Assembly (NCBI GenBank): GCA_964187785.1
Contig: OZ076409.1
Location: 12,340,001-12,404,000, forward strand
DNA: 64,000 bases
Direction of reading: 5' to 3'
Source: Amphiscolops sp. MND2022
Lineage: Eukaryota
Below, piece after piece: positions 2,689 through 38,029 of the stretch. The position numbers and the translations under genes are program-made. Numbering within the stretch: position 1 is the stretch's first letter; every line of letters begins with the position of its first letter. The notes under the pieces are model-generated. The model did no database searches and was not told the DNA's origin. It was given only the letters and a program-made list of their open reading frames with translations.

Positions 2689-2966
2689 TGTGTCATTCAA
2701 GAAACTCATGAATGACTTTCCAATGAAACAATCGATGTTGTGATGATTAACAATTAACGTAGGTTATGTAATTTCACTTTTGAGTCAACGATTTACGAGA
2801 AAGTCAGCATGGTTAGTGAAACCTTTTACTTAATTTTGTGGGAAATTGAATACTTAGCTAAATTTGCTGGTATTGTAGATTTGAATCAATTCAACTGAAG
2901 ATTTTACAAACACTGATTTTCTTCTACGAAAACTACCCCACGAAGTGTAGTCGCCCCTAACGGCAA
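2689..2966 (+). repeat. 5' LTR of BEL/Pao element
   Basis: TGTGTCATTCAAG...GCCCCTAACGGCAA, repeated at 8486-8764. Confidence 0.95.
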
Positions 2967-2975
2967 ATTCAAATC

Positions 2976-16460: not shown

Positions 16461-18171
16461 TACTGAAGATTTTTTCTGAAACAAATTTTGGAAAAATGAT
16501 CAAAAAAAACTTTTCCCCACAAAATTTTCGGTTTTTTGAGCTTTTCTGTCAAAGAAAACAGTGTTCCGAGTATCAAGATTGACCTCTTTGGTTTTTGTTT
16601 TTTTTGTGGAACTGATGAGTTTATATCTTTCAATAATGGTGGAAAAAAATTACGATTTTTTGGCTCTTTGCGACTTTTTTCAGTTTGTTCGGTATTTTCC
16701 TGAAAATAGGGTTCTCTTTTTTGCAAATTAACAATTCCGTAAATTGAAAAAAAATTGAGAGATTGCGTACTCTCGAATTGGCTATTTTGTTTGCGCTGGT
16801 CGATGGAAGACATCGATTTCGGAAATAATTTGGAAGTTCAATTCAATTAGAGTTTTGTTTTTAAAAATGATCAAATCGTTCGAATCCAAAAAATAAAAGT
16901 TGTCCAGACAACAGAATAATAAGTATGCCAGCTATTTTGAGACACAGGAAGGTTGTCGTAGTCGCTGAAGTAGACTAAGAATATTTCCATTCAATTCGAA
17001 TTTGGTTGTTGGAGTATTACTTATTAATGTCTCAAACAAAAGGCACCCAAATTATGAAGTGGTTCAATAAAATCATGAAGAGGCGTGCTCTCTGAAGTTT
17101 GGGCGTGTCTCCAAAACAACGTATATGACGTCATAATCTCTTCCGTTTCCATGAAAACGTTTCAAATTCAGACGCAGATTTGTTTCATCGATCAAGAATT
17201 TCACAACAGGAGGAGTTTGATGGCGCTTGAGAGGATGCTTTTATCTAGCCGGTCGTAAGACTCAGTGGAGCCTGCAGGTATATTGGACATCCAACTAATG
17301 TGAAATATCGCCTCATTTTTGCCTAGAAACCGAACTTCGCTTCACTTTGAAGTATTTTTGGTTGAGAGCTTCCTTGTGTTCGTATATGGGTCACTTCCAT
17401 CTGAGTTCAATGCTCACTTTACTATGTTTTTCGGATGTTGATGTTAAGCTAAATACAGCAAGAGGCCTGGTTGTAAAATCAGTATTCACTGAAGTATAGT
17501 TCAATAGTAATAGACTATTTATGACATGAAAGTACTCATATAACTGGTATCTGCAAGCTGCTGGACAAACCGGAACTTGTTATTCTAAAGGTGCCAGGCT
17601 TCTCGGCTGTACTTGATTTTTTGAACGGTAGCACTTCTAACATTTCATTTTGTAGGCAATCCATTCGTTCAGGACCTGTTTTTACAATGAATCGCTCAAA
17701 ACATGCTTCAGTTAAATACGTGAGAACATTGTCTAGCATTGAAGAACCTAATTCCACTTTAAAAGATCCTAATAAAAATCCATAACTTTTTAAAATATAC
17801 CTTTCCAAACGAAATTTGATCATAACTCAGTGTGATTTAGGCAAAAGTAAACTTGATTTAAAATCGTACTTTTCCGTGCATTGGATTTGATCAAGTAAAT
17901 TAGATTTAAACAAGCAACCGTATAGGAAAGAGAAATCAACTTTTAATTATACTTTTTAGGTAACTGTTACCTCGTATATGGGTTCCTTCGCCAAGCATCT
18001 AGGTAAATAGCTCAAGGTATAAAAAACTGTTGAAGTAGAACTTCAAGATTGAAAAGCAGAATATGAAAAGCAAATGAATATCTGAATTTATCGATGTCTA
18101 GCAATTTTGACAGGTGTTAGTAAATAGACTGTTCACACTTATGCGTTTTGTCTAGCACTAAGGTTAACTTT

Positions 18172-18572
18172 TGAGCTGTTAAAAAGTTGTGTGGTGGTTT
18201 CTTTTAGGAGTGTTAGTACTGACATAAGAAGTCTAAGATTTTAACAGCGGAGTCGTCTTATCTTATATCTTGTAGCTAGCTAGTTCTGAGAACAATCTAT
18301 TTCTGAGATCTCAGTTATCGAAGTGCGGGAGGAAGACCGATTGTTAGGATGAATTCTCAATTTCTCCGAGTAGATATATTCTATTAACTAGGGTAGGTTA
18401 CATCAATTAACAATGTGACAGCAACAGGATGAATCAGGGGAGCTTGATACAGGATCTATTAAATGAAGTTTCTTAGCTTCTAAATTAGATTACATTTACT
18501 AATTGCTTTGGTTAAGAGTTCAGAGTATTTCAGATTTATAGAATCTTTGAGGACATGCATCATGGCATCACA
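18172..18572 (-). repeat. 3' LTR of the giant Gypsy element
   Basis: Plus strand TGAGCTGTTAAAAAG...CATGGCATCACA, same length as 35693-36093. Confidence 0.97.
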
Positions 18573-19630
18573 ATCAACCGGGAATTTAAAATAAATTACA
18601 TATATGCACTTTGGGTTTGAGGAGTTCTAGAAGTTTTTGTTATATGCATGGGTTTGTTTCATATGTGTTGTACTAGAGTTGTATGAGTTTCGTTTTGTAG
18701 AGTACCATACTTAAGGAGTGAGAACAACCTAAGACGATTTGACTTCTTACGTCATAGACGATTCAATTGGTGCAAAAAGGTTCAGGCAAGGTTCAAGTTC
18801 TTTCAGTTTCTTTGACTGACAAGTTCTTTGAAGTTATTGTTGACAACTATTTATCATTTCATGTTTCTTTTTCGTATCAGCCATCAGCTTGTTTGAAAAA
18901 ATTCTTTCATCAACATGAGTTAGTCAGCATTGAAAACTTTTCAAGTTGAAGAATTAAAGCGTGAAGTTGTCAATGAGTTGTGAACCAACATTGGCGGGTA
19001 TGTGAACCAAAAGTGAAGAAGTTTCGAAAAGTCAAGGTTCAAGTGAGAGTTCCTTTTCAACGAAAGTGAAGAGTAGAGCAGAGGCAAAAGTTGAAAAAAA
19101 ACTTTGGCAATTTCAAGTTTCAAACATTAGAAAACTAGAAGGGACATTTTTTAAGAGTTCCAAAGAAAAATTTGGAAAATTTTTGGGAATGCTTTTGGGG
19201 ATTAAAACAAAGGTGTAGAACATGTTTTGTAAAAGAAAAAATTTTTGTCCAAAAATCTTAGAAAATTTCTTGTACTGTAGGTAGGACTTGTGTTCTGTAA
19301 AAGATGGGTATTGGAGATATATTTTTGAAGTGTATTATAGATGTATCAACATAATTAGATAAGATTAAGTTATTGTACTATACACAAGACAATAGGAGCA
19401 GATAATATTGTGGTTACAAAGATAATTATCGGTAGAATTTTGAAGGGATTTTGCAATAATGGGGTAATTAGAATGCGATTACAGAAGAATAAGATTATAT
19501 AAGAGTATATAGCACTAAAGATTAGGGAAGAGTATATAGCATTACACTGTATTAAAGTTATAATTTGATTAAAATAAGTTACAGGTTATATTGGTTAAAA
19601 GTGATTATACAGTTCAGTTTGAAAATTGAG

Positions 19631-19852
19631 TCAAGTTTTGATTATAATGTTTGAAATTTGGAGTGGAGTATAGTCCATTAGAGTTTGAAGACCAGTCAAG
19701 AAGTCAGCATTTGAGGTGTGAAGACCAGTCAAGAAGTCATCGTGGAGTGTGAAGACCAGTGACGAGGACAAAATTTGGCAACGTCGATGAACCCAAAGTG
19801 GAGATGGATGTTGTTGACCATCGAGTGTGGGTGGAGTGAAGAGTTTCAGCAT
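19631..19852 (-). CDS. small orphan ORF (73 aa) with a 33-bp internal repeat (DFLTGL(H/Q)T)
   Basis: ATG-started, same strand and codon bias as the element. GAAGACCAGTCAAGAAGTCA is repeated. Coding status is uncertain. Confidence 0.3.
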   Translation of the reverse strand: MLKLFTPPTLDGQQHPSPLWVHRRCQILSSSLVFTLHDDFLTGLHTSNADFLTGLQTLMDYTPLQISNIIIKT

Positions 19853-19969
19853 GTGTAGGAGTTTTTTGAAGGAGTGATCGACAGCTACATCTCAAACATC
19901 ATTGAAGAAGGATGATGGATTCAAGAAGAGATGGAGTTGAAGAGTGATAAAAGTAAGTAGAATATTGTT

Positions 19970-20422
19970 TTAGTTGTAGAGAGGATGTTGTTGAGGTGGG
20001 TGTGCCTGATGTTGATGAGGATCATAGTGTTCGAGTTTCTGGGTATATCCAAAACTATGAAGCATCTCGTTAAATGCGTTTGTGGCTTCGTGTAGGGCAG
20101 CTTGAAAATATTGGTCTTTAGACGTGAACGCCGAGTTTAACACAAAAACGACGTTAGAAGCCGTTTCACAAATGGCAATTTTTGGTCCGGCGACATGAAT
20201 CCTTGAATATTGTTCAAATGTAATGTGTTTCTTTTTGATTTGGGCGACATTATATAGGACTTTCAGAAAGACGATAAGAGATTTTGGCGATATTTTATTG
20301 TTATTGATCTCCAGGGAAATTTTGTAGGCCTTTGTGTGAAAAATAGCTGCTTTTAGGCTATGAACTTTTGAGTGGCTGGAAGTCATTGTTATTATATCTT
20401 GTATTTCAGCGTTGGGGGCCAT
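19970..20422 (-). CDS. orphan accessory ORF (150 aa) of the Gypsy element
   Basis: Intact ATG-to-stop ORF in good context (GTCATGG), preceded by a pyrimidine-rich tract. Globular-like composition with a Q/H/P tail. No family recognised. Confidence 0.6.
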   Translation of the reverse strand: MAPNAEIQDIITMTSSHSKVHSLKAAIFHTKAYKISLEINNNKISPKSLIVFLKVLYNVAQIKKKHITFEQYSRIHVAGPKIAICETASNVVFVLNSAFTSKDQYFQAALHEATNAFNEMLHSFGYTQKLEHYDPHQHQAHPPQQHPLYN

Positions 20423-20841
20423 GACGAGAGAGTCCTGTAGAAGACGAAAAAGGAGAAGTGGAGATGTTCTGAAAGAGAATGGAAGGAGGAGGAAGAAGAA
20501 TGGATGTTTCTAAAACAAAGGAAGTGTAAGAAGAATGACAATATCAAGTCAAAGATGTACAACAAAATTGGGTGCTATAATGTATCATATGTAGTGTTGT
20601 GCTATATTGTCTTGTATGTCTTGTATTGTAGTTTTTTTTGATAGAAATAGTTAGCTTTTTGACATGTACTGTAGGAAAAAATAGTGTACTTGAAAAATAG
20701 TCCTGAGATTTCATTCAAAAGCAAGAATTTACTTTAAATAAGTAGGTAAAAATGAAAATACCTTTTATAATGTGCCACAGATGTATCATAGAGTGTACCA
20801 GAGAAGAAAAATTAGGAACTTTATATTACCTGTAGAAGAGT

Positions 20842-22224
20842 TTAATGAAGATTAGTTGAGTTAAAAAGAGTAGTTATAGTTTCCAAAGCAGATTGGATTG
20901 CTTGGGATGGTTGAGTGATGCGTTGAGAGTCTAAATCGAGTGTCTGAAGGAGTTTGTGTGTTCTGTCGTAGCAGTGTAGTATATGTGTGAGTGTTGTGAT
21001 AGATGTTTCAGAGGAGTTTCGTTTATAGGGTTCAAGTAAACTTGTTATGTCGCGAAGTGTTCGATTGTTTAATACAGAGGAAAGTTTGTCAGGAGCGTTT
21101 TTTATGGGTGAAGCGTGTGCTTTATGTTCAGTTTTTTGTTCAGCTTGTACCATGAAAGAGATAGTTTTGGCAGAGATAAAGAGAAGTTCATTGTAGGAAT
21201 ACGTTTGCTTGTAGAGTGCTGTATAGTACGTTCTATCTTTATCGTCAAGTGGAGAAGATACTAGGTGTTTAATAACAGTAAGAGGTTTGGCAATTTGAGT
21301 AGGAATGTTGCAAGGCAACAAAAAATCATCGTAATGTATGAGATATTCTTGAGGTACAATAAGTGGGCGTGAAGTATTGTTGTATGGAAGCAAACAGATA
21401 TATTGTTTTATAGGGTCATAGTTTCGAAGGTAGCCTGTTATACAGGAGTGGTCCAGAGTGTACATATTTGTCATTGTGAACAGTGATGTATATTTGTAAT
21501 TGACAAAAATGTGATTTTGGGGTTTCGTGTATTGCAGGAATTTAGTATATGTTTGATGATGAGTAGCTTTTTGTGCTATAGAGAGAAAAAATGGATCAGA
21601 TTCATCTGTTTTGAGATCGTATATAGAAGGTCGAAGAAAATTGAATTGGAGAGAGAAAATTTTAACTCCGTTTTTGACCCAATATTGGTATGGACCCATT
21701 ATTTTGGAAGCAATGGATGTGAAGAAGTCTTGATTTTTGTCAAATAAGCGAAATGAATAGTCAGTAGGATGCATATATAGAGAAGTTGGCTGTGCTTTGG
21801 AGACGAACTCGTCAGTAGAAAGAATTGAGGTCAAATAATCGTCGCGGTTCGTGCAAAGTGAAATTTTTGAAGGTATTGAAGGAGGATATATTGGTGATGA
21901 AAGAAAGATTGGATTTTTCATAATTTCATATCGTTTTTTTGGAGGAGGTGGTGTCGATTGTGTATGATCAGTATCATCTTGTGGAGGAGTTGGTTTTGAA
22001 TTTTCGTTTTCAACTGTTGTGTGTTCTATTGGTTCAAGAAAAGTTGGAGGTGTTTGTTCTGAAGTCTCAATATAGAAAACAGGAGAATCATTTGAAAGAG
22101 GTCTAGTTATAAGATCTGTTGGGGTTGCTTGTTCAAGCTGAGTTTGTAGGTCAATTTGTGCTTGTGTCATTGTTTTAAAAACATCAACAATCACAGTGTT
22201 ATCTATTCCAAGAGGCCTTAGCAC
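20842..22224 (-). CDS. orphan accessory ORF (~460 aa) of the Gypsy element
   Basis: Long uninterrupted frame in AT-rich DNA downstream of env. Contains PPPPKKRY (NLS-like). No family recognised. Confidence 0.75.
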   Translation of the reverse strand: MLRPLGIDNTVIVDVFKTMTQAQIDLQTQLEQATPTDLITRPLSNDSPVFYIETSEQTPPTFLEPIEHTTVENENSKPTPPQDDTDHTQSTPPPPKKRYEIMKNPIFLSSPIYPPSIPSKISLCTNRDDYLTSILSTDEFVSKAQPTSLYMHPTDYSFRLFDKNQDFFTSIASKIMGPYQYWVKNGVKIFSLQFNFLRPSIYDLKTDESDPFFLSIAQKATHHQTYTKFLQYTKPQNHIFVNYKYTSLFTMTNMYTLDHSCITGYLRNYDPIKQYICLLPYNNTSRPLIVPQEYLIHYDDFLLPCNIPTQIAKPLTVIKHLVSSPLDDKDRTYYTALYKQTYSYNELLFISAKTISFMVQAEQKTEHKAHASPIKNAPDKLSSVLNNRTLRDITSLLEPYKRNSSETSITTLTHILHCYDRTHKLLQTLDLDSQRITQPSQAIQSALETITTLFNSTNLH

Positions 22225-22433
22225 TTTAAAGTGAAAGTACTATAAATTACACTAACGAGTGGATTTATCAACTTTAGTTGAAGAGTTTTTGAAGACGGTT
22301 ATTATTGGAGAAGTATTGTTGGGCTGAGGAAGATGAACTTCTGCAAGAGTTTCGAGCGGTGGAGGAGTAGCAATTGTGAAGAGATAGTAGGGAAGTGTAC
22401 TGAAAGAGAGTTACAGAAAAACTGAGAGAGTGT

Positions 22434-25141
22434 TCAAGAAAATGGAGGAGGAAAAGGATAGTTTATCCGCGAATAGATTTTAATTGGTGTATCCGTAGTA
22501 GAAGTGACAGGATTGTTAATTAAAGTGTCATGTTGAGTAGTTAGATTGTCATTCGAGTGAAAGTTTTTATGAGTATAATTAGAAAGTGGAGGATGTTGAA
22601 CAGGAGAGAAAGGAAGTGGAGCCGTTTCATGGTGAGAATTGTGGTGTCGTTTCGGAAACAAGTTAAATTTAGGAAATTGAATTTTGTTAGGACGTTTAGT
22701 GTAGAAAGGTGGAGGGGAAGTAACATCTGTAGAATGGTTAATTAGATTTGGAGAAGTGTCAATAAAATTATCTAAAGATTTGGATTTTAAAATCGTACTT
22801 TTGGGTTTTTTGTTTTGAGTCTCATGGAGGTCACTGACCATTCGTGCTGTAAGCACATTAAAAAAACCATGTGCTATAGAACTAAATAAAGTAATATTAT
22901 TTTTGAGATTATATTTAATAGATATTGTTTTGTAAAGTTTTACAATGAGTGTAAGAGTAGCTTGTACGAAAAGAAATGTAGAAAAGTATGTACCACATTG
23001 TGTGAGAATGTAACAAGGGTATCCAAAAAGTGCAATAAAAGCATCTGAAAACCATGTAGGTTTAAAAAGAGGAGTTTAATTCAAGAGTTTATCATGGAGT
23101 CCTATACGTAATGTATTGTAAGGATTACCAGAGTCTTGAGGGGAATCTGCATCGTAATTTGGAGTATTAGATGAAATGAAGGAATAACTAAGAGCTTTGC
23201 CTAGTAATTGGAGTGTAGAATCAGAATGTTTAGAAAATAAAATACGGTTCCAAAATTGATCAAGTTCTGCATTTGAATATATACCAGCATCTTGGGCTGT
23301 AAAAGTATTAGGGCGTATTGTAGTTTTGATTTGTGAAGGTGTAATCATTAGTGGAGGTTTGCGTTTAATAGGTTCAGTTCCAAGAATGTAAAAATCTTGA
23401 TCGTCTGAATCAGGATCTAGTTCAATAATGTTACGTGGATTATTATCACATGTAATTGGTGTAGCATAATCATAAGTTTGTCTTGTAATAGGATCAACGT
23501 ACATTAAGGTATCTTTAAAATGTATTGGTATACGGTCAAAGCATCTATCTGCTTTGTATAAAGGAGATAGAAAATGAGGACAGTCGTAAAGCCAGGCGGT
23601 TGAGCCTTCAACGTATAAGAAGTTACTTCTATTACCGGTTAAGAGAAAACCAGCAAGTTGAGGGTTTTGTACTGACATTGCGAGTATTGTAAGGAGTTGG
23701 TTTCGTTCTAGTTCACATATTGTATGAAGAGTATTTAGTTCTTGTACTGTCATTGATCGGAAAACATGATTAATAGTATAATCGATTTTGGTGTTTATAT
23801 GTGCATCATAATCAATGGTAGCAAAATTGTTTGAGACATTTAATGCAGGGAATACAAATTTGTTATTTGAAGTGTCTAATACTATTTTACCAGAAATATA
23901 TTCATCAATCATGGAATGAGGATTGGGTTGTCCTGTATGCATATTGAAACCATCAATGTATGTTACAAAAAGGTCTGAAAATTGTGTAGAATAAAGAGGG
24001 TCTGGTTTACCACAAAAGGTTTGTGCTGTAGGAAAAACTTCAAACTTGAAAGACTTGGATTATTTGGATGTTGTGTATGAGGAGCATAAACATAGGGATG
24101 TTCTGTACCTTTGATACCAGAAGCTGTTTTAGATTTTATTGGATGTGGAGAATGTACAAAAGAGTCTGTTTCAATCCAATATCTATCTTCAATTTTAGTC
24201 ATACGTCCAATAAAGTCTTGTAAGGTAAAAATTAGACAATAATCATCAGTGAACCAAACAAAAGTAAAATGAGTTTTTGTAGTGGGTTTACAGAAACCAT
24301 CTGCAAAATAGCAGGGTAATGTATGTCCATCGATTATCATGTCATTAGATGTGTCATCATATGTAAGTTCCACTTCAGAAATTTCTAGCCGCCAACTAAC
24401 TAAGTTGACTTCGAATTGATGATGAGCAGGACAGTTATGATAAGGGTTTTGAGTAGGGTCATATATCCAGTTTTTATCAGCAGGCATAAATGTAAATGTA
24501 CCTGTATACATTTCGTTCAATTGATATACAGTGAAAGGGGTTTGATATTGTTCTAAACGTTCTTGAAAACAATGATCTTCTAAGAGTGTAAAAGTTTTGT
24601 TGTATTGAAAGTTATTCAGTATTTTATCATTTGTACCATTTAAATGTCTCATAATGTTTTTACATTCTACTGGATCAAGAGTAACAGGGAGCGGTAATAT
24701 ATTATGATTCCATACGGTTCTATCAACACGACGGTATTTTACGGAACCTTGAAAGCATATTTTCCTTTCTTTCTTTGCATAAGCAACACATTTAAAAGCT
24801 TTGATGCGTTTAGCTTTTGCTCGGACATATACACGGGCTTTAACACTTGCATGCTTAATGTCGGAAGGAGCTTCAGTGCATTGTTTTACATTGAGTAGAT
24901 TAAATTGTCTCAGATTGTGTTGTTTTGCACAGTCATAATGAGAAACCATGAGATTTGTAATATTCGGGTCATCCGATGGAAGATAGTTTTCTGTGTCAGA
25001 GGGTGTTATGGGTATGGAAAAAGTAGAGTTAAATAAATGTAAATAAAGAATTAGATGTGTTATGTAAAAGGTTGTGTAGGGTTTAAAAAGATGTTGTATA
25101 TTTAGGACCGGAATATGGGTTACAGAAGACAATGTTGCCAT
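22434..25141 (-). pseudogene. env: envelope glycoprotein, chuvirus/gB-like class III fusogen (one frameshift ~24048, one TAA at 23076-23078)
   Basis: Hydrophobic signal (FYITHLILYLHLFNSTFS), then HYDC...NLLNVKQC, a Cys-rich ectodomain with NxS/T sites, TFCG..LYST..SDLFV and ICELERNQLLTILAMSVQNPQLAGFLLTG...G...LYDC...CFDRIPI...DPITR...ITC. Reading through the stop gives a TM region and then the in-frame ORF 22434-22856 as cytoplasmic tail. Confidence 0.8.
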
Positions 25142-26324
25142 ATGTGATAGTGGGTATATTGAGATCGCGTTCAAATTCAATATGTACTACTTCAAAAGGA
25201 GCAGGAGAGGTTTTATGTTCCATTTTAAAGACGTGAAATATTGGGTGTGGATATAATCCTTGAAATTTGACTTTGACTTCAAACTTAAGTTCTAGATTTG
25301 ATGTCTGGAGGCGTTTTAGTTCTGTTTCTTTGCGTTTGTGCGATAAGAGGTCGTTGTTGTTAATGAAACGTTCTGCAAGAATTGGAAATCGGGGATCGTT
25401 TTAAGGGTCGTAGATGGTTATACCATCGACTCTTAGTGGATAGTCAGCAAAATTTGGAGTTGGAGGTCTAGAGTGTTCTGCAGTATAGTGTTCGGGCAGT
25501 CTAATATGTGCAGGAACAGGAGTAGGGATTACCACTTGTGAGAAAAGGTCTCCTGATAAAAATGCAGTCTGAGGGTTAGATGAGAGTAGTGAAGCGGTTT
25601 CAAAACCAGAAGTAAAATAAGGAGATTGGAAGAGTTCTGAAGATGGTGTGTCAGAGGACAATGGTTGAGCGTGTTGTCGTACAAGTCGTAATGCAGAAAT
25701 GCTAGAAAGAGCCGAAAAATTGAGTGTTGAAGTGTCTGTACTAAGTCTACGTGAAGGAAGGTCACGAAGATTATATCTATGTTTAGGTACAAAAAGTAAG
25801 CTTGTGTCTTGTGATGGAGCGTAGTCTGAAGTATTATTGTCTAAAAGATTTGAGAGTGATGTAGAGGGTTTTCGAAGAGGTTTTAATGGTGGATAAAGTT
25901 TTGAAGAAGTAGTGCTAAGTTCGGAAGGTAATTTTAGTGAAGGTAGCTTTGTATATTCGGTATCAGGGATTTGTACAAGATTAAGTTGAGGTTGTAGTCT
26001 AACAGTTTTGATAGCTGTAGGATGTTTGTATGTTACGTATTGTTCAACACTTTCAGGGTTTGGTATATGTATAATAGGAGTGTTAATAGGAGTTTGTTGA
26101 GGACGAGTGTTTATAGGAATTTCAGTTATAGGTGGTCTGTGAAGAAGGGAGGAAGAGGTGGTTTCAGAGATGTATGATCTTGATCTTTTAGAAGGAGTAG
26201 TAGGAGTTACATTACTAGAGTTTGTAGTACTAGATACTGAAGATTCAGGTGGGGAAGGAATACTTGGAGCTGATGGAGATATATCAGAGGGAGGATCCAG
26301 GGTTGTTGAAGTGTTTTCAACAGG
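25083..26324 (-). pseudogene. S/P/T-rich ORF3 between pol and env (~410 codons, one internal TAA at 25401-25403, no ATG start)
   Basis: The frame is open from 26324 through the 25401-25661 ORF, and after one stop it continues to 25083, overlapping the env start. Contains PSAP and LYPPL. Confidence 0.6.
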
Positions 26325-26410
26325 TTATGTTTGAGATAACTTGTTATGGGTTATATTTCATTCAACTGGTGTGACTAGTTTTGAGTGAGCCAACGGATAG
26401 AATGACTGGA

Positions 26411-29400
26411 TTACAGTTTTGAAGGTGTAATAAAAAGTCTATAATCTAATTTGGGTTGTTGTCGTAGTTTAGAAGTAGTTTTTGTGGTTCTGTCATTTAG
26501 AGGAGGAAGTGAAGTTGTTTGGTTATTAGATGAGTGTCTTGATCTGTCACTAGAGACATTAGTGTGAGGGGTATTAATTATATGTCTATACAAGGAGTTG
26601 TCATTGGTTGAGGGAGTCAAAGACTTGTCATTGGATGTTATAGATGGTGTATTCTGATTGGATGTACTAAATGATGATGGTGTTACAAATGTTTGGGAAT
26701 CTTCTTCTGACAACGATTCGTCTGAGTTAAAAGGAGAAGAATCACTGTTTGCATATTTGATAGGTTGTGGAATTTGAAATTGAGTTGTGTCTGAAAAGCG
26801 CATAAAACTACGCATGTGTGGATATAAAAGTGGTTCTTTTGGATAATATGGAATTAATTGATTTCTGTGGACGTGGACTGTAGAGCCATCTTGTGCAAGT
26901 AGTTCGTATGTGACGTCTGATAATCTGTCAAGAATTTTGTATGGTCCAATCCGAAGGGGTTTTAGTTTGTCAGAAAAGTGAACGTGTGTAAAATTGCGTT
27001 TTAAAACAAAGGTACCAATAGGAAGGGGTTTACCTTCATGGTAAGTTTTTGTAATATAGGCGTGTGAATTGATTTTTCTTAGAGTGTTTTCGTATACTGT
27101 AGAATAAATTTGTAACATAGCAGTTTCTACAGCGAGAAACCAATGTGGAATGGGTTTTGAAAGTGTTTTATAGAAAAATGGGTTTAAATCTGATTTATCA
27201 TAATGGGAGTGTGCTGGAAGTTGAGAGCAATATCGTGAAATACATGTTTTAGAGGTGTCTCGGTTAAGGTTCAAATCAAATGTAAGGGGTATTCTGGGTC
27301 GGGTGTGGAAAACAATTTCGTGAGGTGAAATGTTGAGTTCTGAAAGTGGTTGTGAATTATGTGCATAAGCGTACATATGGACTTGGAATGCCCAATCTTT
27401 AGGTGTGTCATGTAAGAACATTCGTAAATGGGTACCAAGATTTCTGTTTTGTACTTCAACAAGGCCGTTTGTCCAAGGAGAGTAAGCTGTTTTAGGAGAC
27501 TGACGAATTCCCATAAGTGTGCAAAGGTGTGCCATTTCTTTATTAACATATTCTGATCCACAATCAGTGACAAGATATATGGGTGGTCCAAATTTAATAA
27601 TCCAATGGTGTAGGAGAATTTTGATAGCAGTCTTTGCGTTGTTTGATTTGATGGGTACTGTAACAACAAAGTGACTAAAAGCGTCAATTATCACGTGTAT
27701 ATAGGATTTGTTGTGAGAAGGAGGATTAATAGGTCCTTTAGTGTCCATTGAAATTCGATAGTTGAAAGATGGAGCATGTTCTGAAAATGATTAAGTAGGA
27801 GCAGTTTGAATTTTCATATTAAAGTGTTTGTTTCGTTGACATTCAATACAATCATGTATGAAAATGGAAAGCCATTTTTCAAGGTATGGAATGTAGTTAT
27901 ATTGTTTGAATGTATTGTAGGTGCTTTTCATACCAGTATGAGAGTGTTCATGGAGTTTGTTAAAGACAGTTTTAAACAGTCGGAAAGGAAGGCATATACG
28001 AATAGTGTCTTGTACAAAATTTGGAGTAGAGGATTGGTTGATAACAGTGGGGTTTGTAATATATAGACAAATAAGATTTGTGGATTCGTCAATGAAAAGT
28101 TGTGAAAATCTTTTGTAATAAACATGTAAAAATGGAGTACCAGTGATAAGAGGTGTTACAAATTCGGGTTTTTCATTGTTTAATAACCAAGAATAAACAG
28201 TTCTAAGAACCGGATCTTGGGATTTTTGATGTTGAAGAGTTTTTATGTCCAATGAGTAATCATCTGGAAGGAAGAAACCTTGAAAATAGTTTTTGTACTT
28301 AAAAAATGATGTATCATTGAAAGGTATGATTTGTTGACAGTGTGTGAGAGATGGTAAATTTGGTTGTACATTTATTGCAGAAATTGATTTTTGTGAGGTA
28401 GTGTGAGTTGGTTGTTTAAGAGTAGAATAATTTTCTGTTTGTAATGTTGTATCTTGTAAGAAGGAAGAGTCAGATTTTGGAATTCTGGTGTAAATATGAT
28501 CTGCGTCATCACTTGTAACGTCTATCATTAAGTAAGAGAGATTGTTGATGGAGGGTTTTGTTGTTCTTTTTTGTAGGTGTCTTGAACTTAGTTTGAAAAG
28601 GAGTTATGGATTTGAATGAGAAGGATTGTAACGGTTTGACAACAATGTCTTTTCCTTTATCATTGATTCGAATAGAGAATTGATCTGTACCATAATCAGC
28701 AAGAACTGGATGAGAGTCATGTTTTTGATGAGGTAAAATTTCTTCATGTTTCATAAAGTAATGTACAGGTTTAAGAGTGTTATCTTGTAAAAGTGCAAAA
28801 TCGATTTGTGGTGGGAGGTGTTTATGTTTTAATTGGTTTAGTTGTAATTCAGCTTTTGTAAAGGAGCGACTCAACATATCGGCAACAGAGAGATTTTTTC
28901 CAGGAGTATGAATTATTTTGAGTTTTGAAAATTTTGTCAATTGCATTTGAGCTCTGTAGAAACGATGACTGAGATTACCTTTCTTTGTAAAACAATGTAA
29001 TAAAGGTTTGTGATCAGTAAAATTGTGCATTGTATGGGGAGAACCTATGATGAGAAATTCATAGATTTGAAGTGCGTGTACTATACCAAGAAGTTCTCTA
29101 TCAAGTGTGGAGAGTTTTTGTTCTTGTGGATTAAGTATACGAGAGTTGTACGATATGACTTTCATTTTGTTTTGTTCATTCAATTGAAATAAGACAGCGC
29201 CTAATCCAATAAGGGAAGCGTCAACTGTAATGAAAAATGGATGTTTTGTATTTGGTATTGTTAATTCTGTTTCAGAAGTGAGAGACATTTTAAGTTTTTG
29301 GAATAGACTTTCGTGTTCGTCTGTCCATTTCCAAGGAGTGTTCTCATGTAAAAGATCGTAAAATGGTTTGAGGTTAATATGTAGTTTTTCAATAAATTTG

Positions 29401-32400
29401 GTGTAAAAATTGAGTGCGCCAATGAAACTCATTAGAGCAACTTTGCCAGTTGGAGAAGGGATCTTATGAATAGCTGCAGTTTTTGAATGAATTGGTTTAA
29501 TTGTATTGTAACCAATTTCATGTCAAAGGAATTTGACTTTAAGAAGCATGAAAAAGGATTTTTCAGGGGCTAGTTTAAGATTTGTTTTGTACTAATATTG
29601 TGTAGTTGTTCTATGAGTTGGAACATGTGTTCTTTTGAATCAGATAAAAGTAATATATCGTCAATGTAGACAAGAGCGAAACCTTGTTCTATAAGAGTTT
29701 TAAAGAAAGTAGACATTTGTTTTGTAAAGAAGTTTGGTAGTCCTTTGAGACCATAAAAGCTTCGGATAAAAGCGAAAAGTTTATCTCCGGAGGAGAAACT
29801 AGTAAGTTTTATAGTATCTTCGTCAAGAGGTGTATGTGCATAGGCATACATAAGGTCAATAGCAGATTTATTTGTACTTTTTATTTGCGCGTGCTAGTTG
29901 TGGAGCAAGAGGTTCAATAGGCCAAGATTCATCGGATTGTTCTGTATTGGAGTTAAGATGTCGAGCGTCTAATACACATTTTATTGTATCTCCCTTGGGG
30001 ATTATAATAAGAGGGTTTAAATAAGTTGTGCCATAAACGGGTTTGTCTTGAGGAGAAGAACCAATTTGTTTAATAATGTTATATTTTTCGAGTTCTTTGA
30101 GAAGTACGTTAAGTTTGTCTCGGTAGTGGATAGGGACTTTGGAAGGACGTTGTGTCATAAGTTGAGCATTTGGTTTAAGTCGTACACGAAATGGTGTTGA
30201 AATTTTTCCAACATCGTTTTTATGAGTTGCATAACATGTTTTATATTTGAGTAACATATTGCAAAGAGTAATGTATTCTGAATCTGTAAGTTCAGAAAAT
30301 TGGAAGTTAAATTTATTAATAAATTTCAGATTTTCAGAAGTATATGGTAGAGAAGGAAAAATGCGTTTTTCGGAAGTATGAGAAGTAGGCTGAACGTTAT
30401 ATAAAGGAGAAGTTTGATTTGGAATGTCGTTATTTGCAATATGAATTTGATGTAGAGAGAATTGAGGAGGAAGGGTTGTAGTATCATCATATTGTACAAT
30501 ATAGTTGGTCTGTGGAAGTGGTTCAGTAATATCAGGATGATAAGTATGGGTAACGTTATGTATTAAAGTATTAATGTCGTTAACTTGGAAGAATTTAGAT
30601 TTTTCATTAGTAATTGGAACTTCAATGTATCCAATATGTCCTGTAGGTAGGGTTGCAATATGTTTTGAAGTGTTCTGAGTAATAGTTGCACAAATATCTG
30701 GCTTGTCGTCTGTAAATACTTCAATGAAATTGAAATTTGTACGGAATTTGGTAGAAAAAAACGTATGAGGTACTGAAGGAAAGAAGTGGTTTTGTGGTGT
30801 GGTTGTAAAATGAAGATTATGATAATTTTTGATCGGAAAGTGTGCAATTTTTGAAGATTTGGGTTTTAGACGTATCTGAGTTTTCGAGTTAATTCTATTA
30901 ATGTAAGAGAAGTATGGATAATCTTTAGATAGGAGTGTTGTGAATTTTGCATAATTTGGGTGTGTTTTTGATTGGTATTTAAATTCGAGTGTAAAATCTT
31001 GTATGTTTATGTTTTGTATATTGTCTTCAAAGAATGGTGTGCCAAGGATGTTGTATTTGATATCAGCTACTGCGAAAGGTACTGAAAAGTAACGAGAGTT
31101 TTCATGAATAGTGGTGTTCAAAATTATATTTGCATAATGTAAAATAGGAACTTCAGTTTGGTTTGCAACGGTTAATGTTTTGGAATTTCGAGTTGGTCCA
31201 ACATCAGAGGTGTGATTTAATCTAATATCTAGGAGTTTTGTAAGAGTTATGTATGTTGGGTAATTGAGTACAGAAATGGAAGCACCGCTATCTAGGAGGA
31301 ATGCAATTTCTAATCTAGATGGGTTGTCTCTTTGTACTATACTTGATGGGGTGTGTACATATAGTGTATAAAACCAACTTGTAGATGTGACAGCATTTGC
31401 CATTGCTGTTGGGTGATACATGTGTACTTCAAATTTGATAGGGTCAGTTTGGTCTTGTTGTTGTATCATATTGACTTTATTTCTAGAATTGGAGTGTGAG
31501 CGAGATCTAGAAAATCTAGAGTCTCTTGGTCTTGAAGGTGGTCTATATGAATTTGTGTACTTGGTGAATTTGTTATCTCTTGAATAGGAGCGTGATCTGT
31601 ATCTAGGACGAGAGTTTTGTCGATATGGGGATCTATAAGAAGATCTGTAAGGAGAACGGTAAGATCGAGAATCACGTTTGTATGTATCATATCCTGATCT
31701 AGAGTAGTGTGGAGGAGTAGTACTTTTGTCGTAACGAAATCTGTCTCTATCTCGAGATGTAGAACGGTATCGGTTTTGTGAATAATTTTTGTTGTAAGAG
31801 TTGTCTCGTGAGGAACTTCGACTTCGGTATCGATTATCATTGTGTTTTGTTCTGTCATTGGAAGGGGAACGAAAGTACTGAACGAATGATTTTTGTGGAG
31901 ATTTTGATCGAGCATATGCTTCTCGTTTATCTTCATCATCTCGTTGTTTTTTGAAACAGGCAGAAATGGAGTGATTTGTTCTATGACAGTATGAGCAATG
32001 TTTTTTATATGCAGGTTTATTTTTGTTATTTGGGTCTTTGGGTTGTGTATACATAAGTTGTTCTTGAGATGAGTGATCAAGAGTTTGAGTGTTCAATTGT
32101 TTTGTAATATTATTAATTTCAAGTGCAAGATCATGTGTTCTGATTTTGTCGTTTGCTATGTCTTCAGCATCAACAAGTTTTACTAATGTATGAAAAGGAA
32201 TTGAAGGTTCTAGAATAGTGGAGGTGTGTTTTACTTGTCTTTTATTTGCAAAATCTTTAAGGTTTTTTGGAAGTCCTTTTGTAAAGGCTTCATTACCTTT
32301 AAGGTTTATAGTAGATGCATTCTCATTACACCAGCCTTTTTCAACCAGCTGTTGAAATTTGAGTGCAAAATGACGTACTGTTTCATTATCTTTTTTTGTT

Positions 32401-35000
32401 AAATTAAGGGCTTCAACTTGAGCATAGTAAGCGTTCTTTTGTGAAGAAAATTGTTTTTTGAAAGCTTGTACAAAAGCGTGCCAATCATGTTTATAAGTGT
32501 CGTTTAAACGAATGTACCAGCTTAGTGCTGTACCTGTTAAAGAGCATTGTATGAAAACCATGCGACGGGCGTGCCAAAATTTATATTCATGTTCCGATGT
32601 AGGTTGTAAACCTAAGGAAAATGTAACACGTGCCTCAATATGTTGTAAATACTCTTCAGGTGTATAGTTGTGATCGAGTCCATCAAAAGGTTTAATGGGT
32701 TCTGATATAGAATTGGAAGAATTAATATATGTTGGGTGTGACATAGTGTTATGAGACATAGTAGATGCAGGTGTTGTATTGTATGTGGGGTTATTGGAAA
32801 TATTAGGTAAAGAAGTAGTTGAAGTACTATGAAAGTGAGGGTTAGTTCTAATTGTTGTTGAAGGAGGATTTGGTATTTGAAATTGAGAAGTTTGTAATGT
32901 AGGAGTGATTGTATTGGATGTATGTTGGGAAGAAAAAGTATTTAATTGATTGGATGTATTGTAATTTATTTGAGATAGTTGTGTATTACTTGGGTTAGTT
33001 TTGGTGAGACTGTATGATAATGGATTAGTTAATATAGGTTGTAATGGAGGTCGAGAAAGATGTCTGGCAGTGGTATAGTTTGTAGATGGGTTGGAATGGA
33101 TGGTGTTAATGTTTAAGGTAGTTTGTGTAGTTTGTACTGAATTGGTTTGAGCTGGAGTATAATTCGAAGTTTGTATTTCAGAAGATGATGGTGGAGTTGG
33201 TGTTTGAAAATGTACTGTATTATTGTTTTGTGCAATGTAGGGTGTATTTGATGAGCTTTGTTGAGGAGTGTCATGGGTGTTTATTTGAGTTGAAAATTGG
33301 GGTGGAACAGAAGGTGGATTACAATTTCGAGGAGATAGTGTTTGTGTCTGAGAGGGTTGAGTAATGTTAGTATTAGATGTAGATAAAATAGAGGTATTGT
33401 CTGGATTTGTATTTGAAGTGTTGTCTTGATTTTGGTTTGTAAATTCATTTTGTGTGATATTGTGGGTAGGAATTATTAAAAGATTTGAATCATCGGTTAT
33501 TGTAAAACTTCGTGTATTTTGTACTGTTTCTTCAGAAAATTCTGATGTATTGTGAATTTTATTTGTTTCAGAAGGATTTGGTTGTTGCATATCTGAGATT
33601 TGTGATAATGGTGGGTATGATGGTTGTTCTTGAGGAGGATCAGGATTTTGAAAAAGATTAACAAGGGCTTCTTGTTCTGGAGATTCTTGTTCTGATTGTT
33701 CTGATTGTTGTCTTGTATATGAAGGTTCAACACTAGAGGTTTGTTCTTCAGGAATTGTTTCATGAGAAGTATCAGGTGTAGTAAAGGGTCTGTTATCTGA
33801 TGTTTCAGAATGTTCAAGTACAAAGTTGTGATCTAAGTTTATTTGTTCAAAATGTGTAACATTTAATGAAGTAAGATCTCGGTAATGTAAATGTTTGTTT
33901 TCATTTTTTACGATGTATGGTAAGAGTTCTATATGTGTTAATATTTGAGGGAAGTTAACATAGGCTTGTTGATCTTTTTGTTCCCAAAATAGTTGGTAGT
34001 TAAATCTAAGAAACTTTAATAAGAATTGTGTAAAAATTTTGACTTGAGGTATAGTGTCATCTGTAAGAATAATGTTGTTATAGAATCTGTACTGAAAATG
34101 TTTTATTTGTAAGATATCTCGTTGTAACCAATAATGAGGATTATCATGTCGTTGGACTTTCGTGTCAAGATCTGGGACCTCGAAATATTCAGATCTGTGT
34201 TTTAGTTCTTGTAAATGAGAAGGACGATAAGGTGGTGTGTCTTGGTTTTCATTGAATTCAATGAGTTTTTGCATGTATGTGTGAAAAACATCTTGTATAG
34301 AAAGTGTAATATTTTGTGGGTGTATAGTTCTAAAAAATGTTCCAAGGTTTATTCCTTTAACAGGGTTAAAAATAACTTGAAAAGGGATTTGTGATGGTGT
34401 AATATCAAGTGTTTTATAGTGGATATAATATAGATAAGAATCACAATGTTCTCGTACTAATGAAATAGTATGTAATATATGGGGTTCTGTTTCAAATGGA
34501 AGTGGGTTTGTGTACTGAAAGATAATGTTTTGTAGAACAGGTGTTACATCTTGTATAAGAGATCGATTTTGTCTTTTGTCAGTAGTGACTGTTAATGGAG
34601 TGGGAAGCATTATATGATATTAAGTTTGATTAGTACAATAAGATTGCCATAGAGGATAGATGTATCGGAAAAGAAGATATTTTGTATTGAATTGTGAATT
34701 ATATGGAAAAATTTGCTCTATGAAAACAACTTGTAAGAAAAAAGTAAGTGCAACACTTATGAAAAGAAGGAATGGGTATTGTATATATTGAATAAGTGTA
34801 TGGAAAGTGTGGTAGATACTAAGTAGTCCAAAAAGAGGTAGTACTATACTTGTTAACATAGAAGAAAAAGGTTGTACTTCAAAGTTTTGGTATGAATGAA
34901 ATTAAGAATTTGTCCAGAAAGAGTGCAAGACCGGCAATGATAGCAACAAAAACCAAAAGCAGACAATGAGTTTAACTATAGTGTCCACTGAAGGCGGCAT
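26411..35000 (-). pseudogene. gag-pol: Gypsy Gag-Pol polyprotein (leader-Gag-PR-RT-RH-IN), disrupted by several stops and frameshifts
   Basis: Capsid-like PFDG..., LTGTALSWY..W..F...F; zinc knuckle CSYCHRTNHSISAC; protease LLDSGAS; RT VYIDD; RNase H VDAS..GLGAVL, RELL, TDHKPL, ADMLSR; integrase HEHSH..CIEC, IDAFSH, TDCGSEY, NGLVE and IGPYKI. Lesions near 34903, 34621, 29868, 29585, 29524, 28520 and 27791. Confidence 0.93.
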
Positions 35001-35672
35001 ATACAATAAAGTTCTTTTAGAGTATGTCAAAGGAGTTGTACAAAAATTTGTTGTATATAGGTGTATGAAAAATGAAAGTTATATAAAGAAATATGTGATG
35101 TATGTGTTATATATTTTAATTGTTATGTATTTGGATCCGTAAGCTAGTTTTAAAAGAGTTTTGTATGTTATTTGTACTATAGAGGAGAGAACAAGAAAAG
35201 TATTATAATTATATTATGTAAAAAATATGTGTTATATATGTGTGCCAACTTTAAAGTTGATCCAAGCGGCTAGAACCAAGGAGATTTCTACTAGCTGGAA
35301 TCGCTGGATAGCACTGAAGAAGGGCCAACACGTATCGCACGTCTGCGGTTGGAACGGAAGAAAGAGAGAAAGCCAACACAAATTCACTCAGTGGTGGTTG
35401 GAACGAAAATTTTACTGACAGGAATTACGTCAAGAAACGTAGTCAGAACCAAGAAATATGAATGACAGGAATTACGGTGAGGAACGCAGTCAGAACCATA
35501 GCAACACGGATCAATTTCAAATAGAAATTGGTTGCAACGTTGAAGTTAGTAACGATAGGCGATATTGAGAGGTGGAGAAACTGTGTGTCGAACAAAGAGG
35601 TAGCGTATGAGAAAGTCGAGGAAAGAGGTACAACAATTGTAGATGTGTGAAATAAATGGGAGAGAAAAAAGA

Positions 35673-35690
35673 ATTTTCTTGGTCGCACCA
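35673..35690 (-). promoter_or_regulatory. primer-binding site (TGGTGCGACCAAG...) 2 nt downstream of the 5' LTR
   Basis: The minus strand reads LTR-CA|AT|TGGTGCGACC, complementary to a tRNA ending GGUCGC-A-CCA. The isoacceptor is not determined (possibly Gly). Confidence 0.75.
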
Positions 35691-35692
35691 AT

Positions 35693-36093
35693 TGAGCTGT
35701 TAAAAAGTTGTGTGATGGTTTCTTTTAGGAGTGTTAGTACTGACATAAGACGTCTAAGATTTTAACAGCGGAGTCGTCTTATTTTATATCTTGTAGCTAG
35801 CTAGTTCTGAGTACAATCTATTTCTGAGATCTCAGTTATCGAAGTGCGGGAGGAAGACCGATTGTTAGGATGAATTCTCAATTTCTCCGAGTAGATATAT
35901 TCTATTAACTAGGGTAGGTTACATCAATTAACAATGTGACAGCAACAGGATGAATCAGGGGAGCTTGATACAGGATCTATTAAATGAAGTTTCTTAGCTT
36001 CTAAATTAGATTACATTTACTAATTGCTTTGGTTAAGAGTTCAGAGTATTTCAGATTTATAGAATCTTTGAGGACATGCATCATGGCATCACA
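35693..36093 (-). repeat. 5' LTR of the giant Gypsy element
   Basis: Upstream of the PBS and gag on the minus strand; about 99% identical to 18172-18572. Confidence 0.97.
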
Positions 36094-38029
36094 CTTTCAA
36101 TGTCAATCTGTTACAAAAACCAACTGATACATTTTTCGCAATGGCAACGCTAGATCTTTCAATGTTACTTTTCATAGTGCCGTATCGATACAGTCCAAGA
36201 TTCCTGTCATTTAGCTGTTGCCTTGCTGGAGCCATGAGAACATTCATTGAATCGTTAACGTATTCTTTAATTTTGGCTTCAAATCCAGAAATGAAATTTC
36301 CAACCATGGTTATCCTTGGGGAATAAAGTGGCAACATTTTATATGGACAAATATCATACACGTTGAGGTTTTATATTCCATGATGGCATCGAGCATTGCC
36401 CATGATGTAAAAGCAGTTAGAAGAGGCCTAAAATTATCTACTGAACTATGAAAATGCATAAAATTCAAGGAAAAAGTTTTGACATTTTTGATTCATGTTT
36501 TCATCCTATTTTCAAGGAAACACTCAATTCAAGGACACACTACACTAAGTAACTGATTTTGTTATCGATACTAGTACCTATCCTACGAAATTTTTAATTT
36601 AGCACGAAAAGTTACTGAAAATGTCAAAACAAAAACGCGGGAACTTTTTCGATTTTAGGTCATTCTGCCGTTATCTTCGTATCTAGAAAACTGCAAATTT
36701 TTCTTGACAAAAAACTACTGTATTGATAGTAGCTTCGCCTGGAGGCTATTGAATAATACTTGGCAAAAAGGGTCAAAAGATATTTTACCGTTTACGATGA
36801 ACATTTTATACTATTTCTATTTGAAACGCGTACTGATAGCTGCATGTTTCAATGCTGAGTCTGTTGAACGTCTATTTCAGGAAATCATCGATTGGCAAAA
36901 AATGGGAAAAATTCAAAAACTGCAGTATTCTATTCAACAAGAGCTACAAAAATATTGAGTTCATTCGTCGTTGTACAGTTTGATGATTTTAAATCAACAA
37001 ACTTTGCGGATGTTTTGGTTATTTCGACAACTTTGCGGCCATTTTGAAGCACTCTTCTAAAAAAAGCCCGCAGATCCTTTTTTAAAACACTTACCAAATA
37101 CCGGGTTCAGTTGTTGTGGAATCCCTAAAAATTTCTAAAATTTTACGAAATCGCTCTAATGATTTTCAAAGAAAGTGGGTGGGAATTTTGTTATATTTGG
37201 ATACTTCGATTAATTTTGGTACATGTCTACATACAAAACCGCCACTTTCTCCTCTAAAAACATACTGCCTGCCTAATTAAATAAAGCGTTTAGAGCTTTT
37301 TGGAACTTCTAAATCTTGAAAGTATTTTTTTTTCAAAAATCTTTAAAACGAATGAAATTTTAATTTCGACTACTTTACGGTCTTTTGAGGCAGTTTATGA
37401 ACACAAATCTTCAAAGAAGCGTACTGAAAACTACATTCTTCGTTATTGAGTTTTTGTGGTGTCGACTCCACGAAATCACCGATTTTTACAGAAATTTCAA
37501 AGATAAATGTCGAATGTATGAGATTTTTGGACTTTTGACTATTTTGAGTTTTCAATAATTTTCTGCACGAAGCGGGGTATTTTGCATCAAAGAAACATTG
37601 ATGATCAAACAACATTTCTTTGTTCACAAAACGTTCCAAATATGTCTGAAAAATGTGGATTTTTTTGTCGAAAAACCTATTGCTCAATTTGTAAAATACG
37701 CCCCTCCGGGGCACACGATTATTTCTGCTTTTATACCCTTTCAGAAGCAAAAAAAGGTAGCCAGAGAAACTATTTCCAAGACAAAAGAGAAGTCAGCAAA
37801 AGTAAAAAAAAAGACGGAGCAAGTTAGTTAATTTCAGGTACAATTGATTAAAACAATATTGCAGTAATTCTATACCACGTAGAGAAATTGCACAATTTAC
37901 ATGTGATACCGCCATATAGTCTGTGTAGAGGTATTTAAATCGAAGAGGGAAGAAAAGTAAAGATTTGAATCGAATGAAATTTCTACTTGTGCAAAAGATT
38001 TTGAGTGTATACTGGAGTCTATGGTTAAC

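Follow-up and report, generated by a model that had tools for sequence, protein, structure and literature searches.

A class III, chuvirus-G/gB-like envelope gene under purifying selection in a defective, probable Ty3/Gypsy endogenous retrovirus

The env proteins of the Drosophila elements gypsy and ZAM are class I-like F proteins with a furin site. Among the closest systems described so far are the elements surveyed by Chary and Hayashi (eLife 2026, PMC13524379), who report 1512 env-carrying Ty3/gypsy elements across Metazoa, 221 of them typed ENV_HSV; their HSV/gB-type errantiviruses include 114 arthropod gypsy elements that carry a chuvirus-like glycoprotein. The screen was filtered for a POL-ENV gap of at most 1000 nt and an overall size of at most 10 kb. 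Dezordi et al. 2020 (PMC7642597) describe BEL/Pao 'Anakin' elements with a chuvirus-like env in mosquitoes. Here we analyse a 64,000-nucleotide stretch of contig OZ076409.1 of Amphiscolops sp. MND2022 (positions 12,340,001 to 12,404,000; the window), the minus strand of which holds an element of 17,922 bp (18172-36093) bounded by long terminal repeats (LTRs). Its env gene, at 22434..25141 on the minus strand, encodes a class III (chuvirus-G/gB-like) fusion glycoprotein; it lies behind pol within the LTRs, and in many copies elsewhere in the genome it is intact and has evolved under strong purifying selection. The element is very probably a defective complex Ty3/Gypsy endogenous retrovirus, an errantivirus as Chary and Hayashi broadly use the term, in which the class III chuvirus-G/gB-type Env would enable transfer from cell to cell.

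The env gene is defective in the window copy. An earlier note on this DNA, made from its letters, had proposed a protein of about 900 aa split by one frameshift and one stop, and this is borne out by a natural intact paralogue (copy L002, 98% identical), which has a continuous env open reading frame (ORF) of 902 aa that starts and ends where the window gene does. In the window the gene is spread over three stop-to-stop ORFs on the minus strand, 23963-25186 (407 aa), 23076-24059 (327 aa) and 22434-23075 (213 aa), with bounds slightly wider than those of the ORFs from which the note had worked; the ATG (MATLSS...) at 25141 coincides with its end coordinate. The second and third pieces share a frame, and the first and second lie in different frames. 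The frame changes within 24040..24048 (near 24044), where the window copy is one base shorter than the aligned intact copy; an additional base is likewise present at this place in contigs from two public runs. The premature in-frame stop, at 23076..23078, falls just before the membrane-proximal/transmembrane region, and intact copies read through it. The motifs that the note had quoted are present in the translation, as HYDC...FNLLNVKQC and CELERNQLL...AGFLLTGNRS...C...C...DPITRQT...C, and so is the PPxY motif of the tail (PPPFY).

At the level of sequence, env belongs to the protein family of PF24664 (Monjiviricetes_fusion, 'viral fusion glycoprotein'). The middle piece of the window gene matches this family with an E value of 1.6e-19 and 69.8 bits (cut-off 27), which by itself excludes chance; the first piece gives a weak match (E 1.3e-3), and the intact paralogue scores 85.8 bits. 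Since the gene sits inside an LTR retroelement with reverse transcriptase and integrase, membership is in the protein family and not in the order of negative-strand viruses. No other Pfam family, Glycoprotein_B (PF00606) included, matched the intact env at E <= 1, and a sequence search of the PDB gave no match at E <= 10; a fold common with herpesvirus gB is predicted, and membership of the gB family is not supported by the sequence profile. A scan of 1.84 billion representative proteins returned 2187 matches at E <= 1e-3, 259 of them at E <= 1e-30. An alignment of 27 sequences was built from the paralogue protein and 26 homologues, two of these at 80% and 52% identity and the remainder at 23-30%. 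Five cysteines are invariant in this alignment, all 14 ectodomain cysteines are kept in at least 22 of the 27 sequences, and the block CELER...LAG(Y/F)LLTGNR...DPITRQT is conserved across it. When the alignment was used to scan viral contigs, none of the seven pattern matches was a relative.

Structure searches point in the same direction. The AlphaFold2 model made on this alignment has a mean predicted local distance difference test (pLDDT) score of 60 and a predicted template-modelling (TM) score of 0.37, with domain cores at 70-90 and a disordered tail; it contains a central helix of 45 residues (445-489) and an elongated multi-domain ectodomain folded as in class III proteins. The earlier note had expected such a search to return chuviral G, herpes gB or other class III proteins, and this is what was obtained. 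Against predicted viral structures, Foldseek places the glycoproteins of chu-like, chu-related, xinmo- and qin-related viruses at the head of the list (E 8e-29 to 6e-23), followed by rhabdo-like G from 1e-17 and then herpes gB at about 1e-12; against solved structures, all 50 listed matches are herpesvirus gB, with E values down to 3e-12. A structure search of a language-model atlas was concordant. No class I, class II or F protein, and no non-viral protein, heads any of these structure lists, and no F or class I protein is among the matches listed.

The intact protein of 902 aa has a type I layout, with an ectodomain of about 650 aa that holds the 14 conserved cysteines, a C-terminal anchor at about residues 700-742 and a tail of 160 aa. 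The anchor was read jointly from the model helices and from hydropathy, which peaks in 19-residue windows starting at 716-718. Of the signal peptide-ectodomain-transmembrane-tail architecture put forward in the earlier note, ectodomain, anchor and tail are thus seen in hydropathy and model, and the signal peptide is a putative one, read from a short hydrophobic helix. Furin sites (R-x-K/R-R) are absent from the intact paralogue and from all 27 aligned sequences. A trimer prediction with three copies of residues 440-700, made without an alignment and with an uncertain partner fold, scored 0.00 and says nothing either way. In the tail, PPFY stands at residue 811 of the intact protein (window ~22650-22700). 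PPxY or P(T/S)AP motifs occur in the cytoplasmic tails of 11 of the 27 aligned homologues, or 12 if the sister family P0034 is counted, whose anchor was missed by the crude hydropathy threshold. Judged from the sequences, this frequency lies far above chance for such short motifs, a hint that budding machinery may be recruited by the tail of the glycoprotein.

The element that carries env is delimited by a 5' LTR at 35693..36093 and a 3' LTR at 18172..18572 on the minus strand, each of 401 bp with TG...CA ends. These direct repeats lie 17,521 bp apart and are identical at 397 of 401 positions in an end-to-end alignment. Reading of the flanks shows a target-site duplication of 4 bp (CTTT on the plus strand) at 36094..36097 and 18168-18171. 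A candidate primer-binding site, a 13-mer read from the sequence that begins with TGG, lies 2 nt after the 5' LTR at 35678..35690 (minus strand). The sense strand of the element is poor in G (A 34.6, C 24.3, G 10.3 and T 30.9%, with 19.1% G in the flanks), and a GC skew of 0.33-0.51 marks its borders in the composition profile.

Upstream of env, gag-pol occupies 26411..34619 on the minus strand and is broken into at least five pieces in the window copy. Pfam matches follow one another along the element as Retrotrans_gag, RVT_1, RT_RNaseH_2/RT_RNaseH, Integrase_H2C2, rve and SH3_Tf2-1/Integrase_p58_C, and the translation also shows a CCHC knuckle and an LDSGAS (DSG) protease motif. Elsewhere in the family gag-pol forms one ORF, which spans at least 2381 aa in copy L048 and 2307 aa in copy L046, with the order gag, reverse transcriptase (RT), ribonuclease H (RH) and integrase (IN); intact copies have one giant ORF of about 2,700 aa. 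Ahead of the gag domain (window 32550-34619, minus strand, and also in L048) lie about 690 aa rich in Ser, Thr, Asn and Pro, without a family match. The BEL/Pao markers Peptidase_A17, DUF1759 and DUF5641 gave no match in the element in the Pfam search, and the same kind of search finds all three in a different element of the window, at 2961-8453. Because the domains typical of Gypsy are present and the signature families of BEL/Pao are absent, we read the carrier, by its domains, as of Ty3/Gypsy type. The window copy itself is dead, with at least four lesions in gag-pol, two in env and one in an additional ORF, X, that precedes env.

Many copies of env are intact. In a search of the host genome (1.07 Gb in 1929 contigs, those examined among the thirteen lowest-numbered being 59-104 Mb in length), 122 matches were scored from 8644 first-look candidates; all but the window's own, 121 in number, are 98% identical at the protein level, and 89 of the 122 lie in open frames of 908-927 aa (a count from the match table). 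Among 41 fetched copies, an env ORF of 898-902 aa is present in 24, a fraction to be read as an upper estimate: the 29 copies L002-L030 contribute 12, and every one of the 12 copies L031-L042 has it, these being the 3' halves of further copies picked for an open env frame. In each of these last 12 the end of pol is followed by ORF X (415-418 aa), env, ORF Y (449 aa from stop to stop), ORF Z (179-190 aa), about 1.4 kb of non-coding sequence and the 3' LTR. Over the 276 pairs of the 24 intact env ORFs, the mean synonymous divergence (dS) is 0.097 and the mean non-synonymous divergence (dN) 0.010, a ratio of 0.11. Between the env genes of L002 and L037, synonymous differences number 126.5 and non-synonymous ones 51.5, and 120 of the 178 lie at the third position of a codon; reading this alignment in either shifted frame, as a control, gave a dN/dS of 1.19. 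The env gene has therefore been under strong purifying selection while the sub-lineages of the family diverged, a pattern that is expected if lineages must keep env to propagate. Copy L047 (G000:C5:44453252-44461952) stands apart, in that the sequence expected to be its 5' half belongs instead to the 3' end of a second, degraded copy (with the pol end, X, pieces of env, Y and Z), which implies tandem or nested insertions of the family.

The arrangement is also found beyond this family. The sister family P0034, with an env 52-54% identical, is likewise abundant (50 scored matches of 12,555 candidates, 31 of the 50 without a stop). The family itself occurs in contigs of two organisms; one contig spans 7.5 kb (19900-27385) at ~96% identity, and others cover env and pol at ~82-98%. 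A metagenome contig of 13,166 nt (L050) holds a more distant Gypsy relative, with identities of 26% in gag, 36% over 807 aa of protease-RT-RH, 35% in IN and 27% in env; its env codes for a PF24664-like protein of 763 aa and is followed by two further ORFs (368 and 312 aa). All the gag, pol and env proteins of this contig are homologous to those of the element, which indicates that env and pol diverged together.

Taken as a model, these features describe how the element would spread. By homology with other class III proteins, Env would pass through the secretory pathway and trimerise, and it would be taken up by budding Gag-Pol particles. At the target cell, which by analogy with Drosophila gypsy may be a germline cell reached from the neighbouring soma, Env would insert its internal fusion loops, refold around the central helix and merge the membranes. 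Such fusion would let the element move between cells rather than only within one.

Several points weigh against reading the locus in this way. It is we who infer env expression, fusion activity, trimer formation, incorporation into particles and the cell types involved. The Ty3/Gypsy placement comes from the content and order of Pfam domains, not from a POL phylogeny. The AlphaFold2 model is moderately confident at best, parts of the putative domain I fall below a pLDDT of 50, and TM-scores to gB stay low, at 0.2-0.3, owing to differing domain orientations and to 371 residues with a pLDDT under 50. The internal fusion loops are expected by class III homology and so are putative, as is the signal sequence, the N-terminal hydrophobic helix (residues 21-39) being short. 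The primer-binding site is a candidate by its TGG start and position, and no purine-rich tract was seen where it was looked for, adjoining the 3' LTR (window 18573-18620). Finally, the copies were drawn from the best-scoring matches, which biases the intact fraction upward; the selection result is independent of this sampling bias.

The selection on env bears on whether the glycoprotein might be kept for a job other than entry, such as interference with receptors, resistance to superinfection or a function inside the cell, while the element spreads by intracellular retrotransposition alone. Very large copy numbers are typical of intracellular retrotransposons, and fusion, expression and particle formation by Env are all deduced; moreover, receptor blocking is proposed by Dezordi et al. 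for solo chuvirus-like glycoproteins in mosquitoes. The env considered here, however, is borne by an element and selected from ectodomain to tail, the transmembrane region included (dN/dS ~0.10); it retains all 14 ectodomain cysteines as well as the motifs of the central helix, and it has co-diverged with pol in the distant relative. A protein that served interference only would not require an intact anchor and tail in every lineage, and we consider a purely non-entry role unlikely.

The position of env speaks to a different origin, in which the ORF would be a fragment of an endogenous chuvirus, that is, a non-retroviral endogenous viral element (EVE) nested or chimeric in or beside a Gypsy copy. 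Dezordi et al. 2023 saw mostly fragmentary Gypsy pieces beside EVEs of Jingchuvirales glycoproteins and, at that time, no clear capture by Gypsy. Here, by contrast, env lies between pol and the 3' LTR, enclosed by one pair of LTRs that are 99% identical and flanked by a target duplication; the arrangement recurs in 12 of 12 sampled copies, in the sister family and in the distant L050 element, and no homologue of an L polymerase or nucleoprotein was detected nearby with Pfam. An EVE origin is already contradicted by these data and retains next to no probability. Just as improbable is a carrier of the BEL/Pao class, of the mosquito Anakin type, in place of Ty3/Gypsy. Among retroelements with a chuvirus-like env, Anakin is the best known, and the order RT-RH-IN is common to BEL/Pao and Gypsy; yet the three BEL/Pao signature families, all recovered from the true BEL/Pao element of the same window, are lacking here, the Gypsy-typical RT_RNaseH_2, SH3_Tf2-1 and Integrase_p58_C are present, and arthropod markers were not found in the host genome. 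We therefore keep to a Ty3/Gypsy endogenous retrovirus with a class III Env as the very probable explanation.

Three additional ORFs accompany env, all on the minus strand. ORF X (25083..26324) is about 418 aa long in intact copies and is split in the window by a stop at 25398-25400, whereas ORF Y (20842..22170, about 440 aa from its ATG) and ORF Z (19970..20422, about 150 aa from its ATG) are open in the window copy; all three are open in the 12 sampled copies L031-L042. They evolve under purifying selection: dN/dS is 0.07 in frame for X (1.0-4.3 in shifted frames), 0.07-0.09 for Y (2.4-5.0 in shifted frames) and 0.03-0.05 in frame for Z. ORF X overlaps the start of env by about 59 nt and has no Met codon in the sequence of one copy, so that it is probably reached by splicing or by some other non-standard route. 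Searches of Pfam, the PDB and the atlas with X, Y and Z gave no family match. ORF Y has 268 homologues at E <= 0.001, of which the 120 listed are 63-99% identical and all come from genomic ENA contigs; its full length is kept down to 64-70% identity. A homologue of Y (39-49% identical) lies directly downstream of the sister-family env and is split in that copy. The AlphaFold2 model of Y reached a pLDDT of 32.

Chuviruses have the gene order G-N-small protein. A bolder version of our interpretation would make the element a complex errantivirus of a non-arthropod invertebrate, infectious or recently so, in which a class III env is joined by three selected accessory genes akin to the regulatory genes of complex retroviruses; in its boldest form, Y and Z would be relics of the negative-strand RNA virus that donated env, and the env tails of this protein family would carry their own late domains recruiting the endosomal sorting complex required for transport (ESCRT). 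We offer this version tentatively, as a possibility that we think would more probably fail than hold. Within it, the sequence comparisons leave unsupported the proposal that Y could be a viral nucleoprotein, or that Y and Z could be a chuvirus N and small protein captured together with G. When the Y alignment was compared by hhalign with ORFs that follow env in L050, L053 and L054, probabilities were no higher than 0.3, and a BLASTP comparison of X, Y and Z with every ORF of L050-L056 gave nothing below E 0.3. Neither of the two post-env ORFs of L050 resembles X, Y or Z; a long ORF likewise follows env in L053 and in L054.

Marker searches of the host genome gave weak evidence of its affinities: the insect odorant receptor family 7tm_6 had no match among 6 candidates, arthropod cuticle Chitin_bind_4 had no candidates, and neither molluscan haemocyanin nor the N-terminal domain of nematode cuticle collagen was found, with 82 homeodomain matches as a positive control. 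The mitochondrial COX1 contains 11 in-frame TGA codons, and its conserved motifs read best with AGR as Ser, ATA as Met and AAA as Lys, which, judged against known COX1 motifs, we take to be the invertebrate mitochondrial code; no tRNA was detected next to COX1 by ARAGORN. On this evidence we regard the host, tentatively, as an invertebrate outside the arthropods. The BEL/Pao retroelement on the plus strand of the window (2961-8453) shows DUF1759, RVT_1, Peptidase_A17, Integrase_H2C2, rve and DUF5641 across three consecutive ORFs with stops between them. On the other side of the Gypsy element, a satellite array (38389-64000) repeats with a period near 104 bp; 13-15 copies were seen up to 40 kb, and a uniform AT skew of 0.22-0.25 suggests that the array extends to the end of the window.

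The recent proposal that class III fusogens have long been partners of Ty3/Gypsy elements in animals gains a well-documented case from these results. The dN/dS of about 0.1, with its frame-shift control, is quantitative evidence that the element needs env, and fusion could be tested directly with the many env ORFs that are naturally intact in this family. A size of 17.9 kb and a pol-env spacing of 1.8 kb suggest that published screens filtered by length and spacing may miss large complex elements, and the three selected accessory ORFs raise the question of which extra functions an invertebrate endogenous retrovirus needs.

Compared with known systems, the element shares with Drosophila gypsy and ZAM a Gypsy backbone with env and the model of a life by cell-to-cell transfer, and differs in that their baculovirus F-type env is class I-like with a furin site and the present one is class III without such a site. 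Herpesvirus gB (PDB 2gum, 3nw8 and others) has no match at the sequence level, and identity in structural alignments is ~10-12%. With Anakin (PMC7642597) it has in common an LTR retroelement with a chuvirus-like glycoprotein downstream of pol, but Anakin is BEL/Pao and the present element Ty3/Gypsy, and the host group is also different. Glycoprotein G of the Jingchuvirales (PF24664) is close in that env passes the family profile, shows its cysteine and motif pattern and finds its closest predicted structures there; the present env, however, resides in a DNA-integrated LTR retroelement and not in a negative-strand RNA genome, has a longer tail (160 aa) and is 23-30% identical to the full-length distant homologues in the alignment.

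Closest of all are the HSV/gB-type errantiviruses of Chary and Hayashi, and the remark in the earlier note that gB-type env had been reported in invertebrate Gypsy elements agrees with PMC13524379, where gB-type and chuvirus-like env both occur in Ty3/Gypsy. Both those elements and ours have a class III gB-like env behind a Ty3/gypsy gag-pol, occur in many near-identical intact copies within a genome, and show an env that co-diverges with pol and a conserved ectodomain cysteine pattern. Ours differs in its size (17.9 kb), its gag-pol ORF of ~2,700 aa, an integrase-to-env homology gap of ~1.8 kb and a host that gave no arthropod markers, and its order GAG-POL-ENV is unlike that of the nematode, bryozoan and flatworm elements described there. 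As the gap exceeds the 1000-nt POL-ENV filter, such elements may have been missed in that screen. Five short env peptides were looked for in the supplements of PMC13524379 at hand and not found, the tables there holding coordinates and not sequences; a literature search aimed at LTR elements that combine gB-type env with extra ORFs turned up nothing closer. The kind of element is already in print and the present one is a further instance, so that its novelty is modest. It differs, however, in carrying the selected ORFs X, Y and Z: the word 'accessory' occurs 0 times in the available text of PMC13524379, and this complex gene content around env, which was not found there, is the part worth pursuing.

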